Part shown: in pieces, positions 9,626 through 52,406 of the stretch
Layout of the letters: each line of letters opens with the position of its first letter
How positions within the stretch are numbered: the stretch's first letter is position 1
Source: Escherichia phage BME3
Direction: 5' to 3' (one strand)
DNA length: 64,000 nucleotides
Sequence record: PP239276.1
Position numbers and translations under genes: made by a program
The notes under the pieces: model-generated
Seen by the model: only the letters and a program-made list of their open reading frames with translations
Databases searched by the model: none
What the model was told of the DNA's origin: nothing

Positions 9626-9710
9626 ATGGTAGCTAAGGTGAGACTCGAACTCACAATCCCTTGGGGCAATACGTTCTAAGCGTATCGTGTATACCATTCC
9701 ACCACTTAGC
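9626..9710 (-). tRNA. tRNA-Leu (anticodon UAG), type II
   Basis: 85 nt with long variable arm; anticodon arm ATACG/CTTAGAA/CGTAT; T-arm GTGAG/TTCGAGT/CTCAC. Confidence 0.6.
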
Positions 9711-9787
9711 CATAAAAATACACCACTGTAAGAAGCCTCAATGTGCTATTGACAGTTAACCAAGTCTACTCCTTGGATGGTGATATT

Positions 9788-9862
9788 TGGTGCAGAGAGA
9801 TGGTAACGATCCATCCTTTCTACCTTTTCAGGGTAGCACTAATCCGTCTCAGCTATCTCTGC
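9788..9862 (-). tRNA. tRNA-Phe (anticodon GAA)
   Basis: Acceptor GCAGAGA/TCTCTGC, anticodon arm CTACC/CTGAAAA/GGTAG; T-loop ATCGTTA is non-canonical. Confidence 0.5.
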
Positions 9863-9867
9863 AAATT

Positions 9868-9943
9868 TGGTCAGTGCGGCAGGACTCGAACCTGCGACCT
9901 GAAGCGTCCAAGGCTCCCACGCTACCAACTGCGCTACGCACTG
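9868..9943 (-). tRNA. tRNA-Pro (anticodon UGG)
   Basis: Perfect acceptor CAGTGCG/CGCACTG, D-arm GCGC..GCGT, anticodon arm GGAGC/CTTGGAC/GCTTC, T-arm GCAGG/TTCGAGT/CCTGC, CCA encoded. Confidence 0.7.
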
Positions 9944-9950
9944 TAAATCT

Positions 9951-10025
9951 TGGCTGGAGATCTAGGAATCGAACCTAGTCATCACGACTTCAAAGGCCGT
10001 TGCCTTCCCACTAGGCTAATCTCCA
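9951..10025 (-). tRNA. tRNA-Gln (anticodon UUG)
   Basis: Acceptor TGGAGAT/ATCTCCA, anticodon arm ACGGC/CTTTGAA/GTCGT, T-arm CTAGG/TTCGATT/CCTAG. Confidence 0.6.
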
Positions 10026-10124
10026 ATAAAACTAAAAATCACTTAAAAAGAACCGCTAGAGTTTGAAGGAGAAAACCATGAGCGAAAAGAGAAATTTTCT
10101 CTAGCGATTCCATTTAAATAATCT

Positions 10125-10199
10125 TGGAGCGAGTAACAGGACTTGAACCTGCACCTGGAGGGTGGAAACCTCATATGCTACCATTAACACTATACCCGC
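10125..10199 (-). tRNA. tRNA-Gly (anticodon UCC)
   Basis: Acceptor GCGGGTA/TACTCGC, anticodon loop TTTCCAC, T-arm GCAGG/TTCAAGT/CCTGT. Confidence 0.55.
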
Positions 10200-10254
10200 T
10201 TAACAATATTACTCTAACATATTATTAGCCCCTTTGTCAAGAGGCTTTTGATAT

Positions 10255-10584
10255 TTATTTTAAAATAGTAGATGAACCACGTCTGTTTAGATATGCAATA
10301 GTAAAGTCCAAATCACCTATTTCTTCAGGTTCCCACTGACCTTCTAAGCCATAACAAGAACAATGATATGCGTGTACTTCATAAAACAAAGATGTTTTCA
10401 TATCATAAAAATAAACGTGAGATTCACCTTCATAATATGCACAATCATAAGTGGCAGAAAGAATTACAATGTTATCCTTATCTAACTCTACTTCATAATA
10501 TCTTTCAACATCTTCAATATGATCAAAACCATCGAAAACATTGATATTAAAATATTTCTCTAACTCTTTTTCTGTCACATACAC
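10255..10584 (-). CDS. hypothetical protein embedded in tRNA cluster
   Basis: 109-aa ORF with GTG start preceded by AAGGAG RBS; Cys/Tyr/His-rich; no recognisable motif. Confidence 0.5.
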   Translation of the reverse strand: MYVTEKELEKYFNINVFDGFDHIEDVERYYEVELDKDNIVILSATYDCAYYEGESHVYFYDMKTSLFYEVHAYHCSCYGLEGQWEPEEIGDLDFTIAYLNRRGSSTILK

Positions 10585-10601
10585 TCCTTTAGAGTTAAAA
10601 T

Positions 10602-10676
10602 TGGTGCTCCCACAAGGACTCGAACCCTGATAAGTTGCTTACAAGGCAACCGTAATAGCCGTTATACGATAGGAGC
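10602..10676 (-). tRNA. tRNA-Thr (anticodon UGU)
   Basis: Acceptor GCTCCTA/TGGGAGC, anticodon arm GTTGC/CTTGTAA/GCAAC, T-arm CAGGG/TTCGAGT/CCTTG. Confidence 0.65.
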
Positions 10677-10682
10677 AATACT

Positions 10683-10759
10683 TGGACTCGACAGGATTCG
10701 ATACCTGCAATTCCAGAAGCCTCTTGGCGACTGGGGGTTTACCTTAACTCTACAAGTCC
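10683..10759 (-). tRNA. tRNA-like element (non-canonical: 8-nt T-loop, no clear anticodon arm)
   Basis: Acceptor GGACTTG/CGAGTCC and T-stem GCAGG/CCTGT enclose an 8-nt loop TATCGAAT; the interior forms a long hairpin (CCAGTCGCC-AAGA-GGCTTCTGG) rather than D/anticodon arms. Confidence 0.3.
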
Positions 10760-10766
10760 ATAATTC

Positions 10767-10851
10767 TGGCGATGGATCAAGGATTTGAACCTTGCTAGAA
10801 CTTTCGTTCACGGATTAACAGTCCGTCGCCCAACCACTAGGCCAATCCATC
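10767..10851 (-). tRNA. type II (long variable arm) tRNA with GUU (Asn) anticodon; Ser-like body
   Basis: 85 nt; acceptor GATGGAT/ATCCATC, discriminator G, 3-bp D-stem GCC/GGC, anticodon arm ACGGA/CTGTTAA/TCCGT, variable hairpin GAAC-GAAA-GTTC, canonical T-arm CAAGG/TTCAAAT/CCTTG. Confidence 0.5.
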
Positions 10852-10858
10852 TTTAATT

Positions 10859-10945
10859 TGGTGCAGGTAGTTGGACTCGAACCAACGAAGCCCAGAAGGG
10901 CAAGAGATTTACAGTCTCCAGCAATTGCCGCTATGCGATACCTAC
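10859..10945 (-). tRNA. tRNA-Tyr (anticodon GUA), type II
   Basis: 87 nt; acceptor GTAGGTA/TACCTGC, anticodon arm GGAGA/CTGTAAA/TCTCT, long variable arm, T-arm GTTGG/TTCGAGT/CCAAC. Confidence 0.6.
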
Positions 10946-10950
10946 GTGTT

Positions 10951-11026
10951 TGGTACATCGTGAAGGATTCGAACCTTCGACCTTGGAGTTAAAAGCCCCT
11001 TGCTCTACCAACTAAGCTAACGATGT
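10951..11026 (-). tRNA. tRNA-Lys (anticodon UUU)
   Basis: Perfect acceptor ACATCGT/ACGATGT, D-arm GCTT-AGTTGGTA-GAGC, anticodon loop CTTTTAA, T-arm GAAGG/TTCGAAT/CCTTC. Confidence 0.65.
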
Positions 11027-11150
11027 ATAAATTATCTTTAAAATAGCCAGTGTTTGCGGCACTTGACTATGGGATATCGGTAAGATGGTGGGGCCATCTG
11101 CCGAAAGTTTACTCTGTTAAAGTAAGATGACAAGCTACATTAAAGATAAC

Positions 11151-11236
11151 TTGGCGGTAGATGTAGGACTTGAACCTACACGCCGTTTCCGACGACAGTT
11201 TAGCAAACTGTTGTGGCTACCATTTCACCAATCTAC
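11151..11236 (-). tRNA. tRNA-Ser (anticodon GCU), type II
   Basis: 86 nt; acceptor GGTAGAT/ATCTACC, discriminator G, 3-bp D-stem GTG/CAC, anticodon arm ACAGT/TTGCTAA/ACTGT, long variable arm. Confidence 0.65.
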
Positions 11237-11245
11237 CGTTCTTAA

Positions 11246-11446
11246 TTATTCAAAACAACCGGAATCTTTTTGTTCTGCTTTTACCATACGAATATTTTTA
11301 CCATCTTCAGATTGTTGAAGATTAGAATACTCATAAATAACTTTATTATCTACAATCTTAACTCCGGTAACAACCTGTCCAATAGTTTTATAATTCATAA
11401 AGCTCCTAGTTGAATTTGGAGGAAGATAATGGAGTCGAACCATCAC
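11246..11446 (-). CDS. small hypothetical protein
   Basis: Track ORF overlaps tRNA-Ser(UGA) 3' end; AGGAG RBS before internal MNYKTIGQ suggests a ~50-aa product starting near 11398. Confidence 0.3.
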   Translation of the reverse strand: MMVRLHYLPPNSTRSFMNYKTIGQVVTGVKIVDNKVIYEYSNLQQSEDGKNIRMVKAEQKDSGCFE

Positions 11447-11506
11447 CGTATCGCTACAATGGGCCAGGGTTCAAACCTGGTTGCGCACCGCTGCGCCCTA
11501 CCTTCC
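11417..11506 (-). tRNA. tRNA-Ser (anticodon UGA), type II
   Basis: 90 nt; anticodon arm CCAGG/TTTGAAC/CCTGG, long variable arm, T-arm GATGG/TTCGACT/CCATT. Confidence 0.6.
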
Positions 11507-11569
11507 CGTTATCATACTTTAAATCTAACATAAAACTATGTTGCTTGTCAAGTAGTTTTTAAAACTTTT

Positions 11570-11651
11570 TGGCCGGGGTGACAGGATTCGAACCTGCATA
11601 CTCCAATTACTCGGTTAACGCCTGATTAGAAGTCAGGTGAGATACACCCCG
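11570..11651 (-). tRNA. tRNA-like element with Arg-type anticodon arm (UCU); D-arm not resolvable
   Basis: Acceptor CGGGGTG/CACCCCG and canonical T-arm; stem-loop CCTGA/CTTCTAA/TCAGG sits only 7 nt after the acceptor, followed by a 23-nt extra region. Confidence 0.35.
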
Positions 11652-11723
11652 TTTTCACAGTAACTATAACAAAAAACTAAGTAAATGTCAAGATATTTTT
11701 TACTAAATTGCTATTTAAATTGA

Positions 11724-11829
11724 AGCCTAGTTATGGAATCGAACCATATTTCGTATTTAGTTAGACAAAGCGATCTAACATATTTTTCAGGCTTTGATGG
11801 CCTCGGAATTACCAAATACCCTACCAGGC
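11724..11829 (-). tRNA. tRNA-like element (over-long, 8-nt internal loop; possible pseudo-tRNA or structured RNA)
   Basis: Canonical T-arm TATGG/TTCGATT/CCATA and 7-bp acceptor pairing spanning about 106 nt; interior contains hairpin GTTAGA-TCGCTTTG-TCTAAC instead of a canonical anticodon arm. Confidence 0.25.
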
Positions 11830-11831
11830 GT

Positions 11832-11917
11832 TGGTGCAAGTGGAGGGATTCGAACCCTCAATCATTTAAGCGTTGCGTTTTAAGCACAATGTGTATCACC
11901 AATTCCACCACACTTGC
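11832..11917 (-). tRNA. tRNA-Leu (anticodon UAA), type II
   Basis: 86 nt; perfect acceptor GCAAGTG/CACTTGC, anticodon arm TTGTG/CTTAAAA/CGCAA, long variable arm, T-arm GAGGG/TTCGAAT/CCCTC. Confidence 0.6.
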
Positions 11918-11948
11918 ATATAGGAGATGCATAGCACCTCCTTTTAAA

Positions 11949-12024
11949 TGGTGGTTCCCCAGGGTTACAATCCCTGCCCTCGACACTTATGAGGTGTGCG
12001 CTCTCGTCAGTGAGCTATGGAACC
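11949..12024 (-). tRNA. tRNA with CAU anticodon (third CAU species; Met/fMet/Ile2)
   Basis: Acceptor GGTTCCA/GGGAACC, D-arm GCTC..GAGC, anticodon arm CACAC/CTCATAA/GTGTC; T-loop ATTGTAA is non-canonical. Confidence 0.5.
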
Positions 12025-12771: not shown

Positions 12772-14505
12772 TTAGTCAACCTGGATGGTTCCCATAGTAC
12801 GAAGAACCTCTACGTCAACACGGTTGCGGATATCAGTGAATGTTTCATCACGTCCTTCTACTTGTGGTGTAATAACCTTACCATCTTTGAAGATAACTTG
12901 TAACTCATTGTCTTCATCCTGGATATCTTTAAAAGAAAGATTATCTACAAGAGAAAGATTACCATTAGTATCCTTAACAACCTTAATAAAACCTTTTGCA
13001 GAGCGTTTACCAGGATCAGTTTTAGGCTCCTTACTTACCAAAATTTCGTGTTCACCGATGATGCTACCTGTTGCTTTAACAGCAAAGCCAAAAGTATCTC
13101 GTGTATTGAACTGATAAGTATAACTACCAACACCAAATACAATATTGGAAGCAGCAAAGCCTTTCTTCTTCAGTCGGCGTAAGATTTCGTGTTCTCGTTC
13201 AACAGTAATAGAATCACCATAAATCATACCGATGTGCTGATCAAGAACCTTGTAGCCTTTTCGGTTGATAGTACCGCCAAACACTTCCCAAAGGATTTGA
13301 ATAGAACCTACTGCTTCACAATAAGGAATCTCATAAGTTTCATCAATACAATCAGCAACGCTACAATCCTGAAGAACATTGTAATACTTATTAACATCAG
13401 CCAAATGAACTACTTCAGTGGCTGTCGCAATACCATTATTTAAAAGGTCTTCATAGTTATCAAAAGATTCAACATTGTATCCTGCAACAACTTTAACCGG
13501 ATCTCCTGAATCTGGACGAATAACAAGACGACCATTTCGTGACATAATGGACTCTTTCAATTCTACCAGAATGCGAGTCAAGACAGCCCAGTAATCATAA
13601 GAATCTGCTACATATGAACAAAAACCTTCTGGAACAATTTCTTCAATATAGCGGCGAAGAAACTCTTTCTCTGCTACATAACGAAGCCCATCAACATCAT
13701 CTTTAAGATGTGGGAAATGTTTCTTCAGATCTTCAACAATAGCTCCAATGTTAGTCGTTGCTACTGAATGTTCTGTTGCCGGAATAGAACCTGCAACAAA
13801 TTGATCATAATCAATACCATAATAATCATGCACAGTTTCAATAGCCAGAATATTATCTGTTCCTGTGAAAGATGCCAAATGAGCGATACCACTCTTATAA
13901 CCATCTTCGATATTGCTTAAGCCACGTAGACTAAAATCATGACACTGGAAATTAACGTGATCAATGTTATCACACGTTGCCATCGCATACGCCATAGCGA
14001 TACGCTTATACTGAAAAGCTGCTGTGGCATTAGTCATTGTCTTCCAAGTTTCATCTGACAAGAGTGTTTCAACATAGTTAGTTAACCAAAAGAATTTTTC
14101 TAAAGTGTTATGCACAGTAAACACAGGAACACCAATAGGGCACAAAACACCTTCTGGCAGAGATCGAACTTCTAGCGGAAGATAACCTAAATCGTGCAAT
14201 TCTCCCCAACATTCAGCAGAAGGAGCAGAAGCACCTAATGCATTTTTAGACATACGATAAAATTTATTTACTGCTGCACTACGAGACATTTTAAAGAAGC
14301 TGTCCCACATAGTTACAAGAGCATCAGTAACTGCTCGACGAATACCTAAAACAATAACACCACGTGCTTCACGATCTGCATAATGTGCAAAGTTTTTATC
14401 ATTACGAGGAGTTAAATTAGAGAAAATGAGTTTTGTATTTTGGTTGTACATCTGCTTGTGACCAGGTTTATACCAATCAGTAGCAAAAGGTGCAAAAATA
14501 TTCAT
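12772..14505 (-). CDS. nadV: nicotinamide phosphoribosyltransferase-like protein (NAMPT family; NARP1 Namat-like)
   Basis: 577 aa; NAMPT hallmarks TDWYK, PEGVLCPIGVPVFTVHNT..FWLTNYVET, HDFSLRG, IRPDSGDP. Confidence 0.85.
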   Translation of the reverse strand: MNIFAPFATDWYKPGHKQMYNQNTKLIFSNLTPRNDKNFAHYADREARGVIVLGIRRAVTDALVTMWDSFFKMSRSAAVNKFYRMSKNALGASAPSAECWGELHDLGYLPLEVRSLPEGVLCPIGVPVFTVHNTLEKFFWLTNYVETLLSDETWKTMTNATAAFQYKRIAMAYAMATCDNIDHVNFQCHDFSLRGLSNIEDGYKSGIAHLASFTGTDNILAIETVHDYYGIDYDQFVAGSIPATEHSVATTNIGAIVEDLKKHFPHLKDDVDGLRYVAEKEFLRRYIEEIVPEGFCSYVADSYDYWAVLTRILVELKESIMSRNGRLVIRPDSGDPVKVVAGYNVESFDNYEDLLNNGIATATEVVHLADVNKYYNVLQDCSVADCIDETYEIPYCEAVGSIQILWEVFGGTINRKGYKVLDQHIGMIYGDSITVEREHEILRRLKKKGFAASNIVFGVGSYTYQFNTRDTFGFAVKATGSIIGEHEILVSKEPKTDPGKRSAKGFIKVVKDTNGNLSLVDNLSFKDIQDEDNELQVIFKDGKVITPQVEGRDETFTDIRNRVDVEVLRTMGTIQVD

Positions 14506-14576: not shown

Positions 14577-15470
14577 TTAAAAATTCCACACGTATGGAGA
14601 TACAATTTGTTGTTGCAAATCTGACTGATTCTTAACAAGAACACCGGAATCTTCTTGGATGTTATCTTCCCACACATTAAGAGAATGAATGCAGTCAAAG
14701 TGCTCACTTAACTCTTTAAGACCTTTAGAAAAGATACCGTGTGTAACATATAGCTCAATCTTACCTGCGTTACGAGCACGTAGCACTTTAGCCAATTCGA
14801 TAAAAGTTCTACCACCATCACAGATATCATCTACGATCATCAGGTTACGCTTATTGAAATCCTGTACAGAAATGTCTGTACGAACAATAGCACCTGTTGC
14901 AGTATCTCTAACCTTCTCTGCACAGAACACATCTAAAGACATTTTCTTAGATAATTTAAATATTTTCTTAAGAGCACCACCATCAGGACTAACAAGAGCA
15001 AAATTCTCCATACGTAACTTCCACTTTAAAGTTTCGTAAGCAATCTCTTCTTGAGGTATTACATAGAGTCTGTCAAACACTGCTGGAGTAACATCGCTAT
15101 GTGGATCAGCAACGATAACACGTGAGAAATTTAATGAATTAATTATAGAAGCAAATGCTTTAACTCCGAATGCTTCCCCAGGCTCACACACTCTGTCTTG
15201 TCGTGCATACGGTACATACAGCATGAGTAAATCAACACAATATGGTTTATGATATAGCATATTGTCCAATGCATTCTTAGTCATAACCAAAGTCATCAAG
15301 TCTTTAGCAGATCTTACTTCTAAAGAGAGTAAGATTCTGTCTGTAGCATGATTGAAACCTGATAGATTCGTATCTAGTTGAACATGTTGTTCTCCACCAG
15401 AGAATGTAAAGACTTTAACGTCTACATCAGTAACATAACAGTCAACACCATGTAGAATACTAACTTTCAT
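14577..15470 (-). CDS. prs: ribose-phosphate pyrophosphokinase-like protein (PRPP synthetase family; NARP1 Adps-like)
   Basis: 297 aa; Prs motifs PYARQDR, LVSPDGGA, MIVDDICDGGRT; directly upstream of the NAMPT-like gene on the same strand. Confidence 0.85.
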   Translation of the reverse strand: MKVSILHGVDCYVTDVDVKVFTFSGGEQHVQLDTNLSGFNHATDRILLSLEVRSAKDLMTLVMTKNALDNMLYHKPYCVDLLMLYVPYARQDRVCEPGEAFGVKAFASIINSLNFSRVIVADPHSDVTPAVFDRLYVIPQEEIAYETLKWKLRMENFALVSPDGGALKKIFKLSKKMSLDVFCAEKVRDTATGAIVRTDISVQDFNKRNLMIVDDICDGGRTFIELAKVLRARNAGKIELYVTHGIFSKGLKELSEHFDCIHSLNVWEDNIQEDSGVLVKNQSDLQQQIVSPYVWNF

Positions 15471-17313: not shown

Positions 17314-17504
17314 TGTTTCTTATTTATTCAGGTAAAGCCAAATACATGCAAGGTGTAAAGCGTGTAGAAGTAGTAGATACTGTAACTATAGGAAAATCCT
17401 TTATTCTTTATTTGTTTTATATCAATGGAGAAAGATTTGCTGTTTCTAAGAAGTTGGTAGATAATGGTAAAACTTGGAAAGAAGAGAAACAGGAAGGGGG
17501 TTGA
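17313..17504 (+). CDS. hypothetical protein
   Basis: 63-aa ORF. Confidence 0.4.
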   Translation: MFLIYSGKAKYMQGVKRVEVVDTVTIGKSFILYLFYINGERFAVSKKLVDNGKTWKEEKQEGG

Positions 17505-17848
17505 TAGTGGCTAAAATTCTTTGGTTAGACGATTTAAGAGATCCTAAAGATTATGGTTATGAGGATGCCATTTGGTTAAAATCTTTTGGGGATTGGTTAT
17601 CTTTTGTTTCAGATGAAGATAATTTCAATAATATCTCAGAGATACACTTCGATAATGATCTTGGAGAAGATCAGGAAGGATATCATGCATTCTTAGACGT
17701 AGAATGTATGTTGTATGCGGGTGAATGGGATGCTCTTAAAACTATCTATGTCCATACATCAAACCCTTCTGCTGCTGGTAAATATATGTTAGCTAAGGAA
17801 AATTTTATTTCATCTTATGGTGTTGAAATTAAGCGTGTTAACTATTAA
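17474..17848 (+). CDS. hypothetical protein
   Basis: 124-aa track ORF; likely GTG start near 17507 (MAKILWLDD...). Confidence 0.45.
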   Translation: MERRETGRGLIVAKILWLDDLRDPKDYGYEDAIWLKSFGDWLSFVSDEDNFNNISEIHFDNDLGEDQEGYHAFLDVECMLYAGEWDALKTIYVHTSNPSAAGKYMLAKENFISSYGVEIKRVNY

Positions 17849-18003
17849 GTAGGTATTATGCATTACTCAGTTTGGTCAGAGCAAGAAGAGGATGAAGGGC
17901 GTTTTATCTATAAAGAGGAAGAAAACTGTAACGATACGAGTAATGATCTTTTACTTCCTGATTACAGTTTTTTCGCTGATAGATTAAAAGAGTACGGAGA
18001 AAA

Positions 18004-18366
18004 TTGATGTGCGCTACTAATCAACATGATATTTGTTACCAACCTCTTACTTGGCTTGGTGAGGATCACTATGCTCAACGTGTTATAGTCTGCGCTGCGA
18101 ATAAGTATATTCTCAATAATGGCGAAGAGTTAATTATTCCTTGTGTTAGGCATGCAAATCCTGTACTATCTGCACAACTTAATGTTTTAAAAGATGCAGG
18201 ATTGATTGATAAACTGTTTTGCTTACCTGATAATCAAGGGTTTATTGATCAGTATTATAACTGGTGGAGTCGCAAAGATGCTTATATCATTGCAGATAAC
18301 GCCAAACAAATTAACTACGAAAGAAATGGTCACAACAGTGAACTATTCAGCGAGGGATTATACTAA
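18004..18366 (+). CDS. hypothetical protein
   Basis: 120-aa ORF directly upstream of the phosphoesterase gene. Confidence 0.5.
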   Translation: MMCATNQHDICYQPLTWLGEDHYAQRVIVCAANKYILNNGEELIIPCVRHANPVLSAQLNVLKDAGLIDKLFCLPDNQGFIDQYYNWWSRKDAYIIADNAKQINYERNGHNSELFSEGLY

Positions 18367-18917
18367 TGTTTATTACAAGTGATTTGCATTTTATGCACAA
18401 ACGTATCCGAGAGTTTGCTCCTGAATATCGCCCGTGGGAAGATATGGAGCATATGACAGAAGCACTGATCGAAGCATGGAATAAATGTGCCACAACACCA
18501 GGAGTAAAGATGTACCATCTTGGGGACTTCTGTTTCGGGACTGAAGAAGATACCCGTAAGATTGCTTCCCGTCTCCAAGGAGATATTACTTACTGTGTTG
18601 GGAACCATGATTATAGTAAACACAGAAAAGTGCTTGCAGAGTATGGAGAAGTGGTTTATTATGACGAAGTGAAATATCAGAAGCTGTTCTTCGTCTTAAG
18701 TCATTACCCTATGGCTGCCTGGAATAAACAAGGGCATGGATCAATCATGCTACACGGACACTCTCACGGATCATTCCCTGACCATTTGTATGGGAAGATG
18801 TTGGATGTTGGTTGGGATGCACACGGGAAAATCTTGCATTTTGACGAAATCATCTCTATTATGGATAAGCGTGATATTGTTGTTGTAGACCATCATAAGA
18901 TAATCAAAGGAGATTAA
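18366..18917 (+). CDS. calcineurin-like metallophosphoesterase (candidate RNA 2',3'-cyclic phosphodiesterase / 3'-phosphatase)
   Basis: 183 aa; metallophosphatase motifs DLHF, GDFCFG, GNHD, HGHSH. Confidence 0.75.
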   Translation: MFITSDLHFMHKRIREFAPEYRPWEDMEHMTEALIEAWNKCATTPGVKMYHLGDFCFGTEEDTRKIASRLQGDITYCVGNHDYSKHRKVLAEYGEVVYYDEVKYQKLFFVLSHYPMAAWNKQGHGSIMLHGHSHGSFPDHLYGKMLDVGWDAHGKILHFDEIISIMDKRDIVVVDHHKIIKGD

Positions 18918-18918
18918 G

Positions 18919-19851
18919 GTGGCTAAGTTCAATTGTGATGACCTGATTGCAAAAGGTTTAGTGCATAAAAAAGAAGTTAAATCTGGAGAGTATGCTGGTC
19001 TTGCTGTACTTAAATACAAAAACAATGTATTCTGGGATAACTTGTGGAACGTTGACAAACGACTTTTAGATTGTCGTGGGTTGGTTGTTGATTCAGAAGA
19101 CAATGTTGTTATTTGGCCTTTTACTAAAATCTTTAATCGTTTTGAAAATGGTACAGATCTTCCAGCAGACGAAATTGTAGATGCTGTCCGTAAAGTAAAC
19201 GGTTTTATGGCATCTGTAGGTGTGTACAAAGGGAAACTTGTTGTATCAACAACAGGGAGCCTAGAATCAGATTTCGCAATTATGGCAAAGAACCGTATTG
19301 TTTCCGAGTGTGACGACATAGAGTATTTCATTAAGTGGACAGAAAGTGCAAAAGCAACTTTTCTTTTTGAAATCTGTGATCCTTCTGATCCACATATTGT
19401 CGAAGAAGAACCAGGCGCATACTTAATTGGAGCAAGAATTCAAAATCTTGATGGGACAAGTTTCATGTTACCTGAAGGTGTTCTTGATGGGATTGCATCT
19501 GTTACAAAATTTAAACGTCCTGAAGTTTATCCGATGATTAAATTTTCAGATGTTGTTGAAATGTCTAAACATTGTAAACACGAAGGGTTTGTAGTTCGTG
19601 AAACAAACTACCCGTTTAACTTACTGTTAAAGATTAAGTCACCATACTATCTTGCTAAAAAATTCCTTATGCGTGGTGGCAATAAGAAGTGGGATATGAT
19701 TTGGGACAACCCAAACAATGCTAAACAAATTGTTGACGAAGAATATTATACTTTGCTAGAATGGCTTCGAAACAACTTTACGAAGGCTCAATGGGCTGCT
19801 CTCGATCCACAAGAGAGACGTAAAGAAATAGAAAACTTCTTTGGAGGCTAA
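18919..19851 (+). CDS. RNA ligase-like nucleotidyltransferase
   Basis: 310 aa; covalent nucleotidyltransferase motif I KVNGF, motif IV EGFVVR, motif V LKIKS; too short for an OB-fold DNA ligase, and a separate DNA ligase is present. Confidence 0.6.
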   Translation: MAKFNCDDLIAKGLVHKKEVKSGEYAGLAVLKYKNNVFWDNLWNVDKRLLDCRGLVVDSEDNVVIWPFTKIFNRFENGTDLPADEIVDAVRKVNGFMASVGVYKGKLVVSTTGSLESDFAIMAKNRIVSECDDIEYFIKWTESAKATFLFEICDPSDPHIVEEEPGAYLIGARIQNLDGTSFMLPEGVLDGIASVTKFKRPEVYPMIKFSDVVEMSKHCKHEGFVVRETNYPFNLLLKIKSPYYLAKKFLMRGGNKKWDMIWDNPNNAKQIVDEEYYTLLEWLRNNFTKAQWAALDPQERRKEIENFFGG

Positions 19852-20256
19852 ATGAAACAACTTATCATTTTACGTGGTGTTTCAGGCGCAGGTAAATCTA
19901 CAGTAGCAGAAATTATCTCTGAAAATCATTGGCCTATTTGTGAGGCAGATCAATACCACTACACTGAAGATGGTGTGTATGAGTGGAAACAAGAGAATAT
20001 CCATAAAGCACACCAATGGTGTCGTGTCAAAGTACAAAAATATATGCAGTATGGTGTTGAAAAGATTATTGTCTCTAACACTTCAACCACAGAGAAAGAA
20101 CTTAAACCTTATTTAACTCTTGCTGAAGAGTTTGGTTATCAAGTTATCTCTTTAGTAGTTGAAAATAGGCACGGTAACGACTCAATTCATGAGGTTCCAC
20201 AACATATTCGTGATCAGCAAGAGAAACGTCTTCGCAGTTCACTTAAACTACAATAA
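19852..20256 (+). CDS. polynucleotide 5'-kinase-like P-loop kinase
   Basis: 134 aa; Walker A GVSGAGKST at N-terminus, overall layout resembling the kinase domain of T4 Pnk; start 1 nt after the ligase-like gene stop. Confidence 0.65.
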   Translation: MKQLIILRGVSGAGKSTVAEIISENHWPICEADQYHYTEDGVYEWKQENIHKAHQWCRVKVQKYMQYGVEKIIVSNTSTTEKELKPYLTLAEEFGYQVISLVVENRHGNDSIHEVPQHIRDQQEKRLRSSLKLQ

Positions 20257-48968: not shown

Positions 48969-49577
48969 ATGACTCAAAAAGTTGCATATCAAGTAGATCG
49001 TGAAGATGGTGAAGGTAGTGTTGTAGTTTTTGATACACATGGTCTTGCAGCAAGACGCAAAGGTGCTTGTCTACTGGACATTGGTGGTGAAGATGAATAC
49101 TGCACTGTACGTAGAGTAAAAGAATTTGATCAATATGCTGAAAAAGGTTTTGTACCCGTGAAAGCACTATTAGAAGCTGGATGGTGGATACCTAGTGCAC
49201 ATGATTATGATATTTTGGAAGATACAGATGAATTCAACAGCGAGGATTTTGTTTTTTCTCTGGATGAAAAATGCGTTTGGAAAAACTGGGATGAAATGGA
49301 ACGCCATGCTTATTTTATAAACGAAGCATTAGATCGTAAAACTTGGTTTGAAAATACAGTTAAAGCAGCGTATCCTCAATTTACTTTTACACAGTTTTGG
49401 GGTGGCCCACATCATATTACTCATACAGCATATTTCGAGTTCCCAGGCTCACGTTATAAAGGTACTGTTTATTGGGATTGGGACGAGGACAAAGAACCTT
49501 CTGCTCAAGATTTCCGTTGCTATGTTTGTCAAGGTGATCAAGAAGCCCTTGACAAGTACCTTAAAAGTCTGGTATAA
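48969..49577 (+). CDS. hypothetical protein
   Basis: 202-aa ORF. Confidence 0.5.
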   Translation: MTQKVAYQVDREDGEGSVVVFDTHGLAARRKGACLLDIGGEDEYCTVRRVKEFDQYAEKGFVPVKALLEAGWWIPSAHDYDILEDTDEFNSEDFVFSLDEKCVWKNWDEMERHAYFINEALDRKTWFENTVKAAYPQFTFTQFWGGPHHITHTAYFEFPGSRYKGTVYWDWDEDKEPSAQDFRCYVCQGDQEALDKYLKSLV

Positions 49578-49578: not shown

Positions 49579-49595
49579 CTGTAAAACTTAACCAA

Positions 49596-49618
49596 AGCCC
49601 CAATCAGGGGCTTTATTT
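49596..49618 (+). terminator. hairpin terminator/attenuator
   Basis: AGCCCC-AATCA-GGGGCT followed by TTATTTAT, ~20 nt downstream of the promoter -10. Confidence 0.5.
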
Positions 49619-49631
49619 ATGTGGAGGATAT

Positions 49632-50165
49632 ATGGGTTTTGATGATATGTTATTATATGAGGAGGCTTGTGTGAAAGAAGCTATGGCTTTACCAGTTTTA
49701 TCTATTGATATTACAACAGTAGACACTTTTTCAGATTGTGAAACGTGTGGATCGTATTCGTCTATTGTACATGAAGTCAGTGGTGATTTAGGCACTTACG
49801 AAGATGGAGATTATGCAAGTTGTTTAGGTGATAATCTAGATGGTGAAGTGGTGAATGTTGCAAACTGGATTGCTTCTAAGTTAAAAGAAAGAAATCGTCC
49901 GTTCCCTAATCTTCTTACACCAGAAGCTATGCTTAAAGCTGAACAAGAGATGTATGATTATGGTTATAAAGTAGATTATGACTATAATGATCCTAAATAT
50001 AAAAAATTGAGTGACAAGTATTGGGAACTAGCTAACGCTTATGATAAATACTACTCTACAGAAAACATTGTTAAATTGTTTTTAGATTTTGGAGTAGAAA
50101 TTAATTGGGATTTCGAAGAGGAAGAGCGTTACGACGCATCTTCTTGGGAGGACGAGGGTGAATGA
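49632..50165 (+). CDS. hypothetical acidic protein
   Basis: 177-aa ORF with GGAGG RBS. Confidence 0.5.
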   Translation: MGFDDMLLYEEACVKEAMALPVLSIDITTVDTFSDCETCGSYSSIVHEVSGDLGTYEDGDYASCLGDNLDGEVVNVANWIASKLKERNRPFPNLLTPEAMLKAEQEMYDYGYKVDYDYNDPKYKKLSDKYWELANAYDKYYSTENIVKLFLDFGVEINWDFEEEERYDASSWEDEGE

Positions 50166-50902
50166 TAGAACGAAAACCCTTACCAGATAGAGATTACTTG
50201 TTATCAAGGTTTAGTGTGGAGAATGGTCGTCTTGTTTGGAAACCTAAACCTTCTACAACAAAAGAGAACAAAAGGTGGAATAGCAGATACGCAGGGAAGA
50301 TTGCAGGGACTATTGATAAAGTTGGTTACTCTCATGTCAAAATAGATGGTATTGTATACTTGGAGCACAGAATTTGTTTTAAAATGTATCATAATTACTG
50401 TCCAGATGTTATAGACCATGACGACGGCAATAAACTTAATAATGCGGAAAGTAATTTGTTGGATAGTAACTATTTATTAAATAATAACAATAGACACGTG
50501 GATGGGTTAGAAGGTATTTATGAAAAGGATGGTGTTTTTCTTTGGGTTATAAACTACAACCAAGAAACTTTCTCTGTTTCAGGTTTCAAAACTAAAGAGG
50601 AAGCTATTGTAGCTAGAGCTTTAGCAAAACAAGAAATTTTGAAAGGATCTTATATCAAAAAAGAAAAGAAGCGTATAGATAACACTTCAGGATTAAGCTG
50701 TGTGTTTGTGGCGACAAGAGAGAGAACATTCTTTTTCAAGTTTGTGTTTGACAAGACCACGTATTGCAAATATGGTTTCAACGATCCAGAGAGATGTGCT
50801 ATAGCTCTGGAGAAGCTAAGATTAAAGGTGATGAAAGAAAAATATAAACCTGCAAATAAAAGCATTTGCGAAAAATATAAGGAGGAGATTTATGCCGCGT
50901 AG
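50162..50902 (+). CDS. HNH homing endonuclease (HNH plus AP2-like DNA-binding region)
   Basis: 246 aa; HVKIDGIVYLEHRICF...IDHDDGNKLNNAESNL HNH core; C-terminal basic region. Confidence 0.6.
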   Translation: MIERKPLPDRDYLLSRFSVENGRLVWKPKPSTTKENKRWNSRYAGKIAGTIDKVGYSHVKIDGIVYLEHRICFKMYHNYCPDVIDHDDGNKLNNAESNLLDSNYLLNNNNRHVDGLEGIYEKDGVFLWVINYNQETFSVSGFKTKEEAIVARALAKQEILKGSYIKKEKKRIDNTSGLSCVFVATRERTFFFKFVFDKTTYCKYGFNDPERCAIALEKLRLKVMKEKYKPANKSICEKYKEEIYAA

Positions 50903-51707
50903 AGTCATATTCATAACTGGCGCAGGACTATCTGTGGATAGCGGTATCCCAGCTTTTAGAACAGATACTTCTTCAGGGGAGGCGTTATGGTCTTCTTATG
51001 ATCTTTCTGAGGTCTGTAATATTTTCAACTTCCGTGACGGTTATCAGCAAGAACAAGGTGTTCTTGATGCTATGGGTGGTTTAGATGCGGAAGGATATAA
51101 CCTCTACCGTAAAACTCACGACTTTTACAATAAACGTCGCGTGGAATTAGAGAAAGTTGACCCGAATCCAGCACATCTTCAGATTGGAGAATGGTTCAAA
51201 AAATATGGCCCAGAACGAATTATTAACATTACTACTAACGTAGATGACCTCCTTGAACGAGCAGGAGTAGATAGGGAAGAAGTGCTACATGTGCACGGTT
51301 TTCTTCCTGAAATTACTTTTCAAAGAAAAGCTGGACAACCTACAATTGTAAAAGATGTTGGTTATCAAGCCATAGATGTAGATGACTACCATTATGTAAA
51401 ACCTAATGTAATTTTCTTTGGGGAAGCTGCTCCACTTTACACAGATATGTATCATATTTTTGATACACTGACGGCTCAAGATTTGGTTGTAGTAGTAGGA
51501 TGTTCAAACCAAGTTATCAATTTTAATTGGGAATTATTCCCTGCACTTAATATGGGTACAAAAATGATCGTTGTTAACCCAGGAATTAATTACGAAGAAA
51601 CTCTTCTTTACGAAGATAGAGGAGTCTTTGTTTATAGAGAAAAGGCAGCAGATGCTTTTAGCAATCCTGCTTTCATAAAAATGATAGAAGATCATTTGAC
51701 TAAATAA
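50892..51707 (+). CDS. Sir2-family (sirtuin-like) protein lacking zinc-binding module
   Basis: 271 aa; ITGAGLSVDSGIPAFR, TTNVDDLLERAG, HVHG, FFGE, VVVGCS sirtuin core motifs; no CxxC...CxxC zinc module. Confidence 0.7.
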   Translation: MPRRVIFITGAGLSVDSGIPAFRTDTSSGEALWSSYDLSEVCNIFNFRDGYQQEQGVLDAMGGLDAEGYNLYRKTHDFYNKRRVELEKVDPNPAHLQIGEWFKKYGPERIINITTNVDDLLERAGVDREEVLHVHGFLPEITFQRKAGQPTIVKDVGYQAIDVDDYHYVKPNVIFFGEAAPLYTDMYHIFDTLTAQDLVVVVGCSNQVINFNWELFPALNMGTKMIVVNPGINYEETLLYEDRGVFVYREKAADAFSNPAFIKMIEDHLTK

Positions 51708-51715
51708 CTTAACCA

Positions 51716-51735
51716 AGGGGGCGAAAGCCCCTTTT
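51716..51735 (+). terminator. intrinsic terminator
   Basis: GGGGGCGAAAGCCCC hairpin plus TTTTCTT. Confidence 0.6.
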
Positions 51736-51751
51736 CTTATAGGAGAATATT

Positions 51752-52009
51752 ATGACCACAGAACAAATCGTTAAAGACCATTTTATGATGCACTACGTTT
51801 ATTACTTCAATAACAATCAACAGAAAGGTGAGGGATTTTGTTATCTATCCGCACAACAAGGTTTTGGTATCCGTCAAGCAGATATTAACGGGGCAGTGGC
51901 TGGGATTACAAAAGGCTTGGTTGAAAACCTTAAAGACAATGTTGTTGTTGTCCCAACGTGCATCTCTTATCTCTCAACCTGCCCTGAAGAAGATTTTATG
52001 CATTCCTAA
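51752..52009 (+). CDS. hypothetical protein
   Basis: 85-aa ORF, last gene of the plus-strand block. Confidence 0.45.
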   Translation: MTTEQIVKDHFMMHYVYYFNNNQQKGEGFCYLSAQQGFGIRQADINGAVAGITKGLVENLKDNVVVVPTCISYLSTCPEEDFMHS

Positions 52010-52078
52010 AACCTCCTGTAACGCATTCTAACGCACTTTTTATTTTAGTAATACGTTTCCCTATCTAATGCAAACAAA

Positions 52079-52111
52079 AGCCCCTAGAATCGCTTCTAGG
52101 GGCTTTATTTT
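52079..52111. terminator. bidirectional intrinsic terminator at convergence point
   Basis: AGCCCCTAGAA-TCGC-TTCTAGGGGCT hairpin flanked by A-run and T-run, between converging plus and minus blocks. Confidence 0.6.
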
Positions 52112-52184: not shown

Positions 52185-52406
52185 CTATAGATCTCGTTCA
52201 TATAGTTCAATTATCAATTCATCCTCTGCTGTTATTGTACCAATTTGCCAAGTGTGAAGATAAACCTCAGTATAAGAGTGTATCTTACTATCTAACAAGC
52301 ACAACCACGTATTGTTGCTTACCTTTTCTTGAATATGAACCTTAACCACGAAAGGGTGAGGGTTATCTACTAAGAAACCAATACTACCTTCTACAACTAC
52401 AGACAT
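52185..52406 (-). CDS. hypothetical protein
   Basis: 73-aa ORF; last gene of the minus-strand small-gene block. Confidence 0.45.
   Translation of the reverse strand: MSVVVEGSIGFLVDNPHPFVVKVHIQEKVSNNTWLCLLDSKIHSYTEVYLHTWQIGTITAEDELIIELYERDL

Follow-up and report, generated by a model that had tools for sequence, protein, structure and literature searches.

A phage sirtuin that has lost its zinc ligands, a probable relative of the class III deacylases, in Escherichia phage BME3

What does a sirtuin without zinc ligands do for the phage that encodes it? The question is raised by sir2, an open reading frame (ORF) of Escherichia phage BME3 that occupies positions 50892..51707 (+) of the 64,000-nucleotide stretch analyzed here (record PP239276.1; the whole stretch is called the window below), starts with ATG and runs for 271 codons. 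An earlier note on this DNA read the product as a zinc-less Sir2 domain resembling those of the ADP-ribosylating or NADase type, working in a genome that also encodes an NAMPT/Prs pair and serving nicotinamide adenine dinucleotide (NAD+)-centered manipulation of the host. Profile searches and a structure model point elsewhere, to the class III deacylases CobB and SIRT5 as its closest, if divergent, relatives. We tentatively read the protein as a NAD+-dependent lysine deacylase that would use ordinary sirtuin chemistry, and put the probability of this reading at roughly 0.4.

Family profiles place the product among the sirtuins far beyond chance. SIR2 (PF02146) was the only family found in a Pfam scan and covers model positions 1-178 of 180 (E = 2.2e-20, 73.8 bits against a cut-off of 24), and PHROG 2162, named "Sir2 (NAD-dependent deacetylase)", matches over the full length (residues 2-270, E = 9e-100). 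At the nucleotide level, Escherichia phage muut and its relatives (Justusliebigvirus, Stephanstirmvirinae) share about 98% identity with the window, and the ortholog in their records is already annotated as a Sir2-family deacetylase. The gene is under purifying selection, with a ratio of nonsynonymous to synonymous substitution rates (dN/dS) of 0.09 in comparison with muut and of about 0.19 with relatives that share 72% nucleotide identity.

The NAD pocket and the catalytic residues are complete. Conservation was assessed in 121 sequences, made up of the query and 120 relatives with identities as low as about 52%, and a 54-sequence subset was also examined. All motif strings that had drawn attention to the ORF are present on its + strand: the NAD-binding motif GAGLSVDSGIPAFR (residues 10-23, 50919..50960), TTNVDDLLERAG (residues 114-125), HVHG (133-136), FFGE (175-178) and VVVGCS (200-205). 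G10, A11, G12, S14, F22 and R23 of GAGLSVDSGIPAFR are at least 98% conserved, and the same level is reached by the GAGxS and F22-R23 elements as such, N116, D118, H135-G136, F175-F176-x-E178, G203-x-S205 and N229. The catalytic H135-G136 pair (51294..51299) is invariant (121/121), as are N116 and D118 within T114-T115-N116-V117-D118 (51231..51245). The FGE loop, a substrate-loop motif, is read as F175-F176-G-E178 (51414..51425). Among canonical residues, the only change in the NAD pocket is the Gln before the Asn of TQNID, here an invariant Thr.

The class III YxxR anion-binding motif is likewise present as F78-Y79-N-K-R82-R83 (51123..51140, +), in which Y79, R82 and R83 are invariant. It aligns with FYNARR of CobB (Y92, R95), and the register is fixed by CobB mutants in the PDB, namely Y92A (6rxs, FYNARR to FANARR) and I131C (TQNID to TQNCD). 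The equivalences between the phage protein and CobB are Y79 and Y92, R82 and R95, T115 and Q129, N116 and N130, D118 and D132, and H135 and H147. Since the His, the Asn and the Asp are all conserved, the protein is not the inactive scaffold that the earlier note would have recognized by their loss; as far as can be judged from its sequence, it is an intact enzyme.

The Cys4 zinc module is indeed absent. The protein has two Cys residues only, C42 and C204, and none in residues 136-171, where Sir2-Af2 and CobB have their CxxC...CxxC zinc ribbon in the alignment. An AlphaFold2 model built from 54 homologs has a mean predicted local distance difference test score (pLDDT) of 91.1 and a predicted template modeling score of 0.89, and is poorly defined only in the cofactor loop (residues 23-32). 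In this model the former zinc-ribbon module (residues 136-173, 51297..51410, +) forms three predicted beta-strands at 136-144, 152-155 and 168-173 with a pLDDT of about 96. The module thus appears to be retained in shape, with its four Cys ligands lost.

The absence of zinc ligands was the ground for assigning the protein to the ADP-ribosylating or NADase types, but cellular sirtuins show that the trait is widespread. Among cellular class III-like proteins, searched in one genome for each of 185,579 species of bacteria and archaea, 45 of the 80 best matches hold 0-1 Cys in the ribbon segment and have otherwise canonical motifs, so zinc loss is not diagnostic of class. Such proteins occur in Marinobacter, Flavobacterium, Chitinophaga, Neisseria mucosa and Haemophilus (parahaemolyticus), among others. 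On the NCBIfam CobB models they reach about 190-215 bits, short of the cut-offs, and therefore cannot be called curated CobB equivalogs. The Sir2La preprint was considered as a precedent for an active zinc-less deacylase and set aside, since its text is silent on zinc.

Class placement by profile and by fold gives the same order of relatives. A profile of the phage clade run against the PDB finds CobB first (1s5p, E = 2.6e-25), followed by Sir2-Af2, a class U protein, and then Sir2-Af1, SIRT5 and Sir2Tm, with class I sirtuins lower. A Foldseek search of the PDB with the AlphaFold2 model also returns CobB first (E = 1e-16, target-normalized template modeling score 0.85), then Sir2-Af1 and Sir2-Af2, SIRT5, Hst2 and PfSir2A; CobB, Sir2-Af1, Sir2-Af2, SIRT5 and PfSir2A are all deacylases. 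Profile and model together place the phage protein, in diverged form, with the class III deacylases, and it probably descends from the CobB/SIRT5 lineage. The assignment to the sirtuins therefore stands, and within them the protein is of the class III type; a likeness to the ADP-ribosylating or NADase types is not supported.

An ADP-ribosyltransferase would move ADP-ribose to a host protein, nucleic acid or small molecule and so reprogram the host. This is improbable here. The NAD pocket is intact, the substrate-contact positions are remodeled, some sirtuins have such activity, and CobB was, as cited in PMC9503650, first found through phosphoribosyl transfer. Robust ADP-ribosyltransferase activity is confined among sirtuin classes to SirTM, whose marks are a zinc domain, a QG that replaces HG, the motif GVGx[NT]TP and a macrodomain that is either adjacent or fused (PMC4518038). 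The SirTM features that were tested all fail in the phage protein, which keeps HG in 121 of 121 sequences and has neither a zinc domain nor a macrodomain neighbor. In scans with PHROG and Pfam and in the annotation of muut, sir2 has an HNH endonuclease and ORFs without assigned function as neighbors, with no Macro domain among them, and no Macro, ARH or NADAR protein is annotated in the 66 kb of muut that cover the window. The closest relatives of the protein are, again, deacylases.

Still less probable by far is a NADase or immune-signal modulator that would hydrolyze NAD+ or cyclic ADP-ribose isomers, either in host shutdown or as an anti-Thoeris-type function. Sir2 domains of defense systems are zinc-less NADases, NAD+ is central to phage-host conflict, and this phage invests in NAD+ salvage. 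Against this, none of the defense-type Sir2 models of PADLOC matched (0 families, at E up to 1), and no ThsA, DSR or HerA-type Sir2 is among the listed PDB matches by sequence or fold. A constitutive NADase would also be of little use to a phage that rebuilds NAD+, and the conserved YxxR motif and FGE loop would be needless in a plain hydrolase. Nothing in the analysis speaks specifically for interference with immune signaling.

The deacylase reading gives these conserved elements a place. An acyl-lysine of a host or phage protein would enter the cleft between the Rossmann and the small domain, and its acyl oxygen would attack C1' of the nicotinamide ribose of NAD+, held by N116 and D118, upon which nicotinamide would leave. 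H135 would activate a ribose hydroxyl and resolve the intermediate, yielding free lysine and O-acyl-ADP-ribose. In SIRT5 and CobB, the YxxR motif holds the carboxylate of succinyl or malonyl groups, and the title of PDB entry 3riy (SIRT5), one of the Foldseek matches, is in line with such an acidic-acyl role. The invariance of Y79 and R82 therefore suggests that this pair recognizes an anionic group, possibly an acidic acyl. NAMPT and Prs could recycle the released nicotinamide to nicotinamide mononucleotide (NMN). The product has an isoelectric point (pI) of 4.84, and the median of the clade is 4.9; an acidic protein would probably suit basic protein substrates better than RNA.

The window sirtuin is an ordinary member of a large phage family that has already been annotated and discussed in print. 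A tblastn search found homologs in 984 of 50,697 phage records (about 2%), among them T5-like phages (about 52-56% identity), rV5-like phages (49%), phi92-like phages, Mydovirus-type Klebsiella phages, jumbo phages and KVP40-like Vibrio phages, whose homolog is 36-37% identical. Identity is 52% to the homolog of SP15 and 49% to that of the rV5-like AlexBoehm. The best cellular match is only 35% identical, and the clade as defined here appears essentially confined to phages.

In the homolog of KVP40-type phages, Skliros et al. (2016) noted that the zinc ligands are missing and the catalytic His is retained; they also noted that it occurs together with phage NAMPT and NMNAT, and proposed that it deacetylates host Acs (PMC5107563). 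Iyer, Burroughs, Anantharaman and Aravind (2022) found most viral sirtuins to form a distinct clade, represented in rV5, Mydo, SP15 and Serratia phage BF, and predicted for it a role in RNA repair like that of KptA/Tpt1 (PMC9503650). The zinc-less state, the link to NAMPT and the RNA-repair hypothesis are thus published.

The clade also has peculiarities of its own. TTNVD, with an invariant Thr, takes the place of TQNID, and V-I-N-F-N stands after GTS where V-Y-P is widely conserved. The canonical Gln is kept in 80 of the 80 best cellular matches, and TTNVD occurs in none of them. An exhaustive search through 1.84 billion proteins, of which the best 150 representatives were kept, shows how these traits are distributed. 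The change from Gln to Thr strongly co-varies with loss of the four zinc Cys: 34 sequences have Thr and no Cys, 7 Thr and Cys4, 8 Gln and no Cys, and 72 Gln and Cys4 (Fisher p = 1e-15). The zinc-less Thr type is also more acidic than the Gln/Cys4 type (median pI 5.05 vs 6.38, p = 1e-7). Domain fusions in longer relatives were considered as a clue to function and dropped, as they consist only of duplicated SIR2 domains or WG repeats; informative cluster names were almost absent among the distant representatives. A literature search for the SIRT5 mutants Q140L and N141V, which affect the same position as T115 and N116, found none.

Gene context offers a second line of evidence. The flanking ORFs of 59 IMG/VR loci, this window and three GenBank loci were clustered, and the loci were grouped into 20 lineages at 70% sirtuin identity. 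Across these lineages, the clade is tied by context to RNA-end-repair genes and to NAMPT/Prs. In Vequinta/Mydo-type phages the order is NAMPT(/Prs), a metallophosphoesterase, Rnl1, cREC (PF20274) and/or AAA_33, the sirtuin, an ATP-dependent DNA ligase and a MazG-like gene. The T5-like loci of lineages 0 and 3, 27 of 27, have a HAD_SAK_2 'Swiss Army Knife RNA repair' phosphatase (PF18143, E = 7e-18) downstream of the sirtuin, at a median distance of 280 bp. A 608-kb jumbo contig encodes Rnl1 two genes upstream of the sirtuin. These results independently reproduce observations of Iyer et al. (2022), whose survey includes a jumbo phage with 2H, Nudix-cREC and PIN genes near the sirtuin (PMC9503650), and add NAMPT/Prs as a second recurrent neighbor.

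In one further lineage (locus L062, 8051..10699), NAMPT lies directly upstream of the sirtuin on the same strand, with an RlaP gene 4.4 kb upstream, and in another (L060, 4723..10442) Prs and NAMPT are divergently adjacent to it. A tie of the sirtuin to NAD+ salvage is therefore plausible, and in this the earlier note is partly supported. Neither L062 nor L060 has an RNA ligase near the sirtuin, which makes them an independent link between NAD salvage and sirtuin in two distant lineages. Neighbors on jumbo contigs include a nucleoside 2-deoxyribosyltransferase-like gene (PF15891, 10713..11198) that follows the sirtuin in L063, and an Rnl1 ligase and an arginase-family gene that precede it in L064 (7582..10708).

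Neither type of partner is universal. T5-like carriers mostly lack both Rnl1 and NAMPT, and among Salmonella-phage records 15 have the ligase vs 289 with the sirtuin. No NadR or PnuC (NARP3) is annotated in 60-90 kb of the T5-like phage DaisyDussoix, where a 314-amino-acid ORF that was considered as a candidate proved to be a Band_7 protein. NAD salvage is therefore not a demonstrated universal property of the carriers.

The RNA-end-repair context is the foundation for the proposal of Iyer et al. (2022) that the clade is Tpt1/KptA-like, with a 2'-phosphate of RNA attacking C1' of NAD+. An example substrate would be a tRNA that an anticodon nuclease of the host has cleaved and that has been resealed; a variant would have the enzyme cap RNA phosphate ends with ADP-ribose. 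The anion site formed by Y79 and R82 would in that case hold a phosphate and not a carboxylate. We consider this possible but rather unlikely. Different RNA-end-processing families flank the sirtuin in independent contexts, the clade is phage-specific and remodeled at substrate positions, and its carriers hold tRNA arrays, with 16 tRNA genes in the window. The two-step mechanism of sirtuins also runs chemically parallel to that of Tpt1 (PMC11417386).

Other features of the protein and of its carriers speak against an RNA substrate. The protein and the whole clade are acidic, and the conserved basic residues R23, R82/R83, R123 and K170 align with Arg or Lys in CobB or Sir2-Af2. Conserved basic residues specific to the clade are few, the exceptions being the invariant R4 and the nearly invariant K224 and R249. 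The scarcity of Rnl1 in T5-like carriers counts in the same direction, as does the window itself, where sir2 lies about 30 kb from an RNA module that is intact without it. In T4, healing and sealing by Pnkp and Rnl1 leaves no 2'-phosphate. By analogy, the kinase, phosphoesterase and Rnl1 of that module would form a complete set with no 2'-phosphate left for a sirtuin to remove.

A 2026 preprint also advises caution in taking 'RNA-repair-type' neighbors literally, since such enzymes can have NAD breakdown products as substrates: in it, a Poa1p-like Macro phosphatase from the pathway for tRNA-splicing by-products serves phage NAD+ reconstitution (bioRxiv 10.64898/2026.01.28.702374). The Poa1p-like phosphatase itself was rejected as a sirtuin-neighbor family, being a Macro-domain protein and not among the neighbor families. 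Were the RNA proposal correct, which seems doubtful, the clade could be the first sirtuins with RNA as physiological substrate, removing or ADP-ribosylating 2'-phosphates at repaired tRNA breaks with NAD+, fuelled by NAMPT/Prs and directed against anticodon nucleases.

The reading as a lysine deacylase has to be weighed against several points. TTNVD and V-I-N-F-N appear to be phage-specific changes at positions that contact substrate or NAD. On the NCBIfam CobB models (NF040867, NF001752-5), the phage protein reaches at best 97.6 bits where 243 are needed, and prot_deacyl_CobB gives 82.8 against 320. In at least three independent lineages the context is RNA-end processing and not protein modification, and the analysis identified no candidate acylated substrate. 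Finally, literature searches turned up no biochemical or genetic test of any clade member or of the RNA-repair idea, which counts against the deacylase and the RNA proposal alike. We speculate that a deacylase could keep the catalytic lysines of the neighboring RNA and DNA ligases free of non-enzymatic acylation.

The window encodes both the NAD+ salvage genes and the RNA-repair genes. As the earlier note had stated, an NAMPT/Prs pair is present: NAMPT, an ORF of the NAPRTase family (12772..14505, -, E = 2.6e-37), and the ribose-phosphate pyrophosphokinase Prs (14577..15470, -, PHROG 619, E = 6e-91) form a salvage pair from nicotinamide to NMN. No NMN adenylyltransferase is annotated in the matching 1-66 kb of muut, a statement that covers the annotation and not a scan of every ORF. 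NARP2 as published combines NAMPT with an NMN adenylyltransferase (PMC13464706), and going by the muut annotation the pair in the window is probably not a complete NARP2. To go on from NMN to NAD+, the phage would depend on a host enzyme or on an unrecognized one of its own.

The RNA heal-and-seal module (17474..20256, +) consists of cREC (17474..17848, +), a metallophosphoesterase (18366..18917, +), an Rnl1-type RNA ligase (18919..19851, +) and an AAA_33 P-loop kinase (19852..20256, +). Nearby, 16 tRNA genes are encoded on the opposite strand (9147..12024, -), and the tRNA array and the module together are likely a countermeasure to host tRNA nucleases. The sirtuin gene is about 30 kb away from this module and from NAMPT/Prs, and no RNA-end-processing gene lies within 10 kb of it in the window. 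Every member of the Vequinta/Mydo-type block has a homolog at 12.7-23 kb here, except for the sirtuin, which is found about 28-30 kb downstream.

Only one gene follows sir2 in a long + strand block, which holds early and middle functions: ribonucleotide reductase, dTDP-sugar enzymes, DNA methyltransferases and a Ser/Thr phosphatase. The start of sir2 is overlapped by 11 nucleotides by an HNH homing endonuclease gene (50162..50902, +; PHROG 99, E = 3e-34; Pfam HNH_3), which is preceded by a 177-amino-acid ORF of PHROG 9509 without assigned function (49632..50165, +; PHROG scan). The HNH gene is absent in Salmonella phage UAB_1 and in many relatives, which give two-piece matches. Its insertion falls exactly at the junction of the overlapping PHROG 9509 ORF and sir2, and recreates an 11-nucleotide overlap. 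The comparison of these sequences identifies the HNH gene as a mobile insertion and not a functional partner of sir2. In UAB_1, a 184-amino-acid PHROG 9509 ORF overlaps the start of sir2 by 13 nucleotides, and this overlap in the HNH-less relatives suggests that the two genes are translationally coupled. PHROG 8514 lies upstream of the PHROG 9509 ORF and PHROG 15991 downstream of sir2. All three families accompany the sirtuin only within this phage subfamily, and none of these neighbors has a recognizable domain.

Signals around the gene are those of a short transcription unit. A ribosome-binding site, AGGAGG (50880..50885, +; read from the sequence), ends 6 nucleotides before the ATG, promoter-like sites are found at 49549 and 50748, and a terminator-like hairpin with a T-rich tail (51715..51733, +) follows just past the stop codon. 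Transcription of sir2 would run from the promoter-like sites to the terminator at 51715. The site at 49549 is a perfect sigma-70 consensus (TTGACA, 18 nucleotides, TATAAT and an upstream TG). A terminator-like hairpin at 49594..49614, which scores on both strands, follows 16 nucleotides past it, so that this promoter would fire directly into the hairpin, an odd arrangement. Another hairpin, with a 13-bp stem (52077..52106) and a terminator score on both strands, separates the + block, which ends at 52009, from the - block, whose nearest ORF ends at 52185.

If the protein is a deacylase, phages would reset the acylation of host or phage proteins during infection. If it is a Tpt1 analog, sirtuin chemistry would reach into RNA repair and tie phage NAD+ salvage to tRNA-damage defenses. 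Either answer would aid the reading of NAD-centered conflict between phage and host, and would improve on the default label "Sir2 (NAD-dependent deacetylase)".

Among known systems, the defense NADases (ThsA, DSR1/2, Sir2-HerA and Sir2-pAgo) share with the phage protein a zinc-less Rossmann domain of the Sir2 type with an active-site Asn and His. Unlike them, the phage protein is a stand-alone protein of 271 amino acids from a lytic phage, with no sensor or partner domain; neither in this single-domain protein nor among the neighbors checked is there a SLOG, HerA, pAgo or TIR domain. With SirTM it has in common the sirtuin fold and the broad way in which NAD+ is bound, the differences being those given above. 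With Tpt1/KptA it shares an association with RNA ligases and possibly an analogous chemistry, in which a nucleophile would attack C1'' of NAD+ and the ribose 2''-OH would attack next. Its fold is the Rossmann type of sirtuins, in contrast to the PTS_2-RNA fold with the Arg-His-Arg-Arg tetrad of that family.

The closest likeness is to CobB, SIRT5, Sir2-Af1 and PfSir2A. GAGxS, FR, N-x-D, HG, FGE, GxS, the Asn and the class III FYxxRR are shared, and so, in the model, is the two-domain architecture including a three-stranded small-domain sheet. The phage protein departs from this group in lacking the Cys4, in the invariant Thr for the Gln of TQNID, in V-I-N-F-N for V-Y-P after GTS, in an extra variable insert at about residues 48-71, in its acidity and in an identity of only about 22-25%.

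Among phages, the KVP40-like group pairs its sirtuin with NAMPT and NMNAT of the NadV/NatV type, whereas the window has NAMPT and Prs and no annotated NMNAT. Unlike its rV5/Mydo relatives, Justusliebigvirus carries sir2 outside the RNA-ligase/cREC/kinase block, behind two lineage-specific ORFs and the HNH gene. The protein itself belongs to PHROG 2162 / VOG1363, the viral sirtuins that Iyer et al. (2022) set apart as a 'distinct clade', and has the same invariant residues as that clade.

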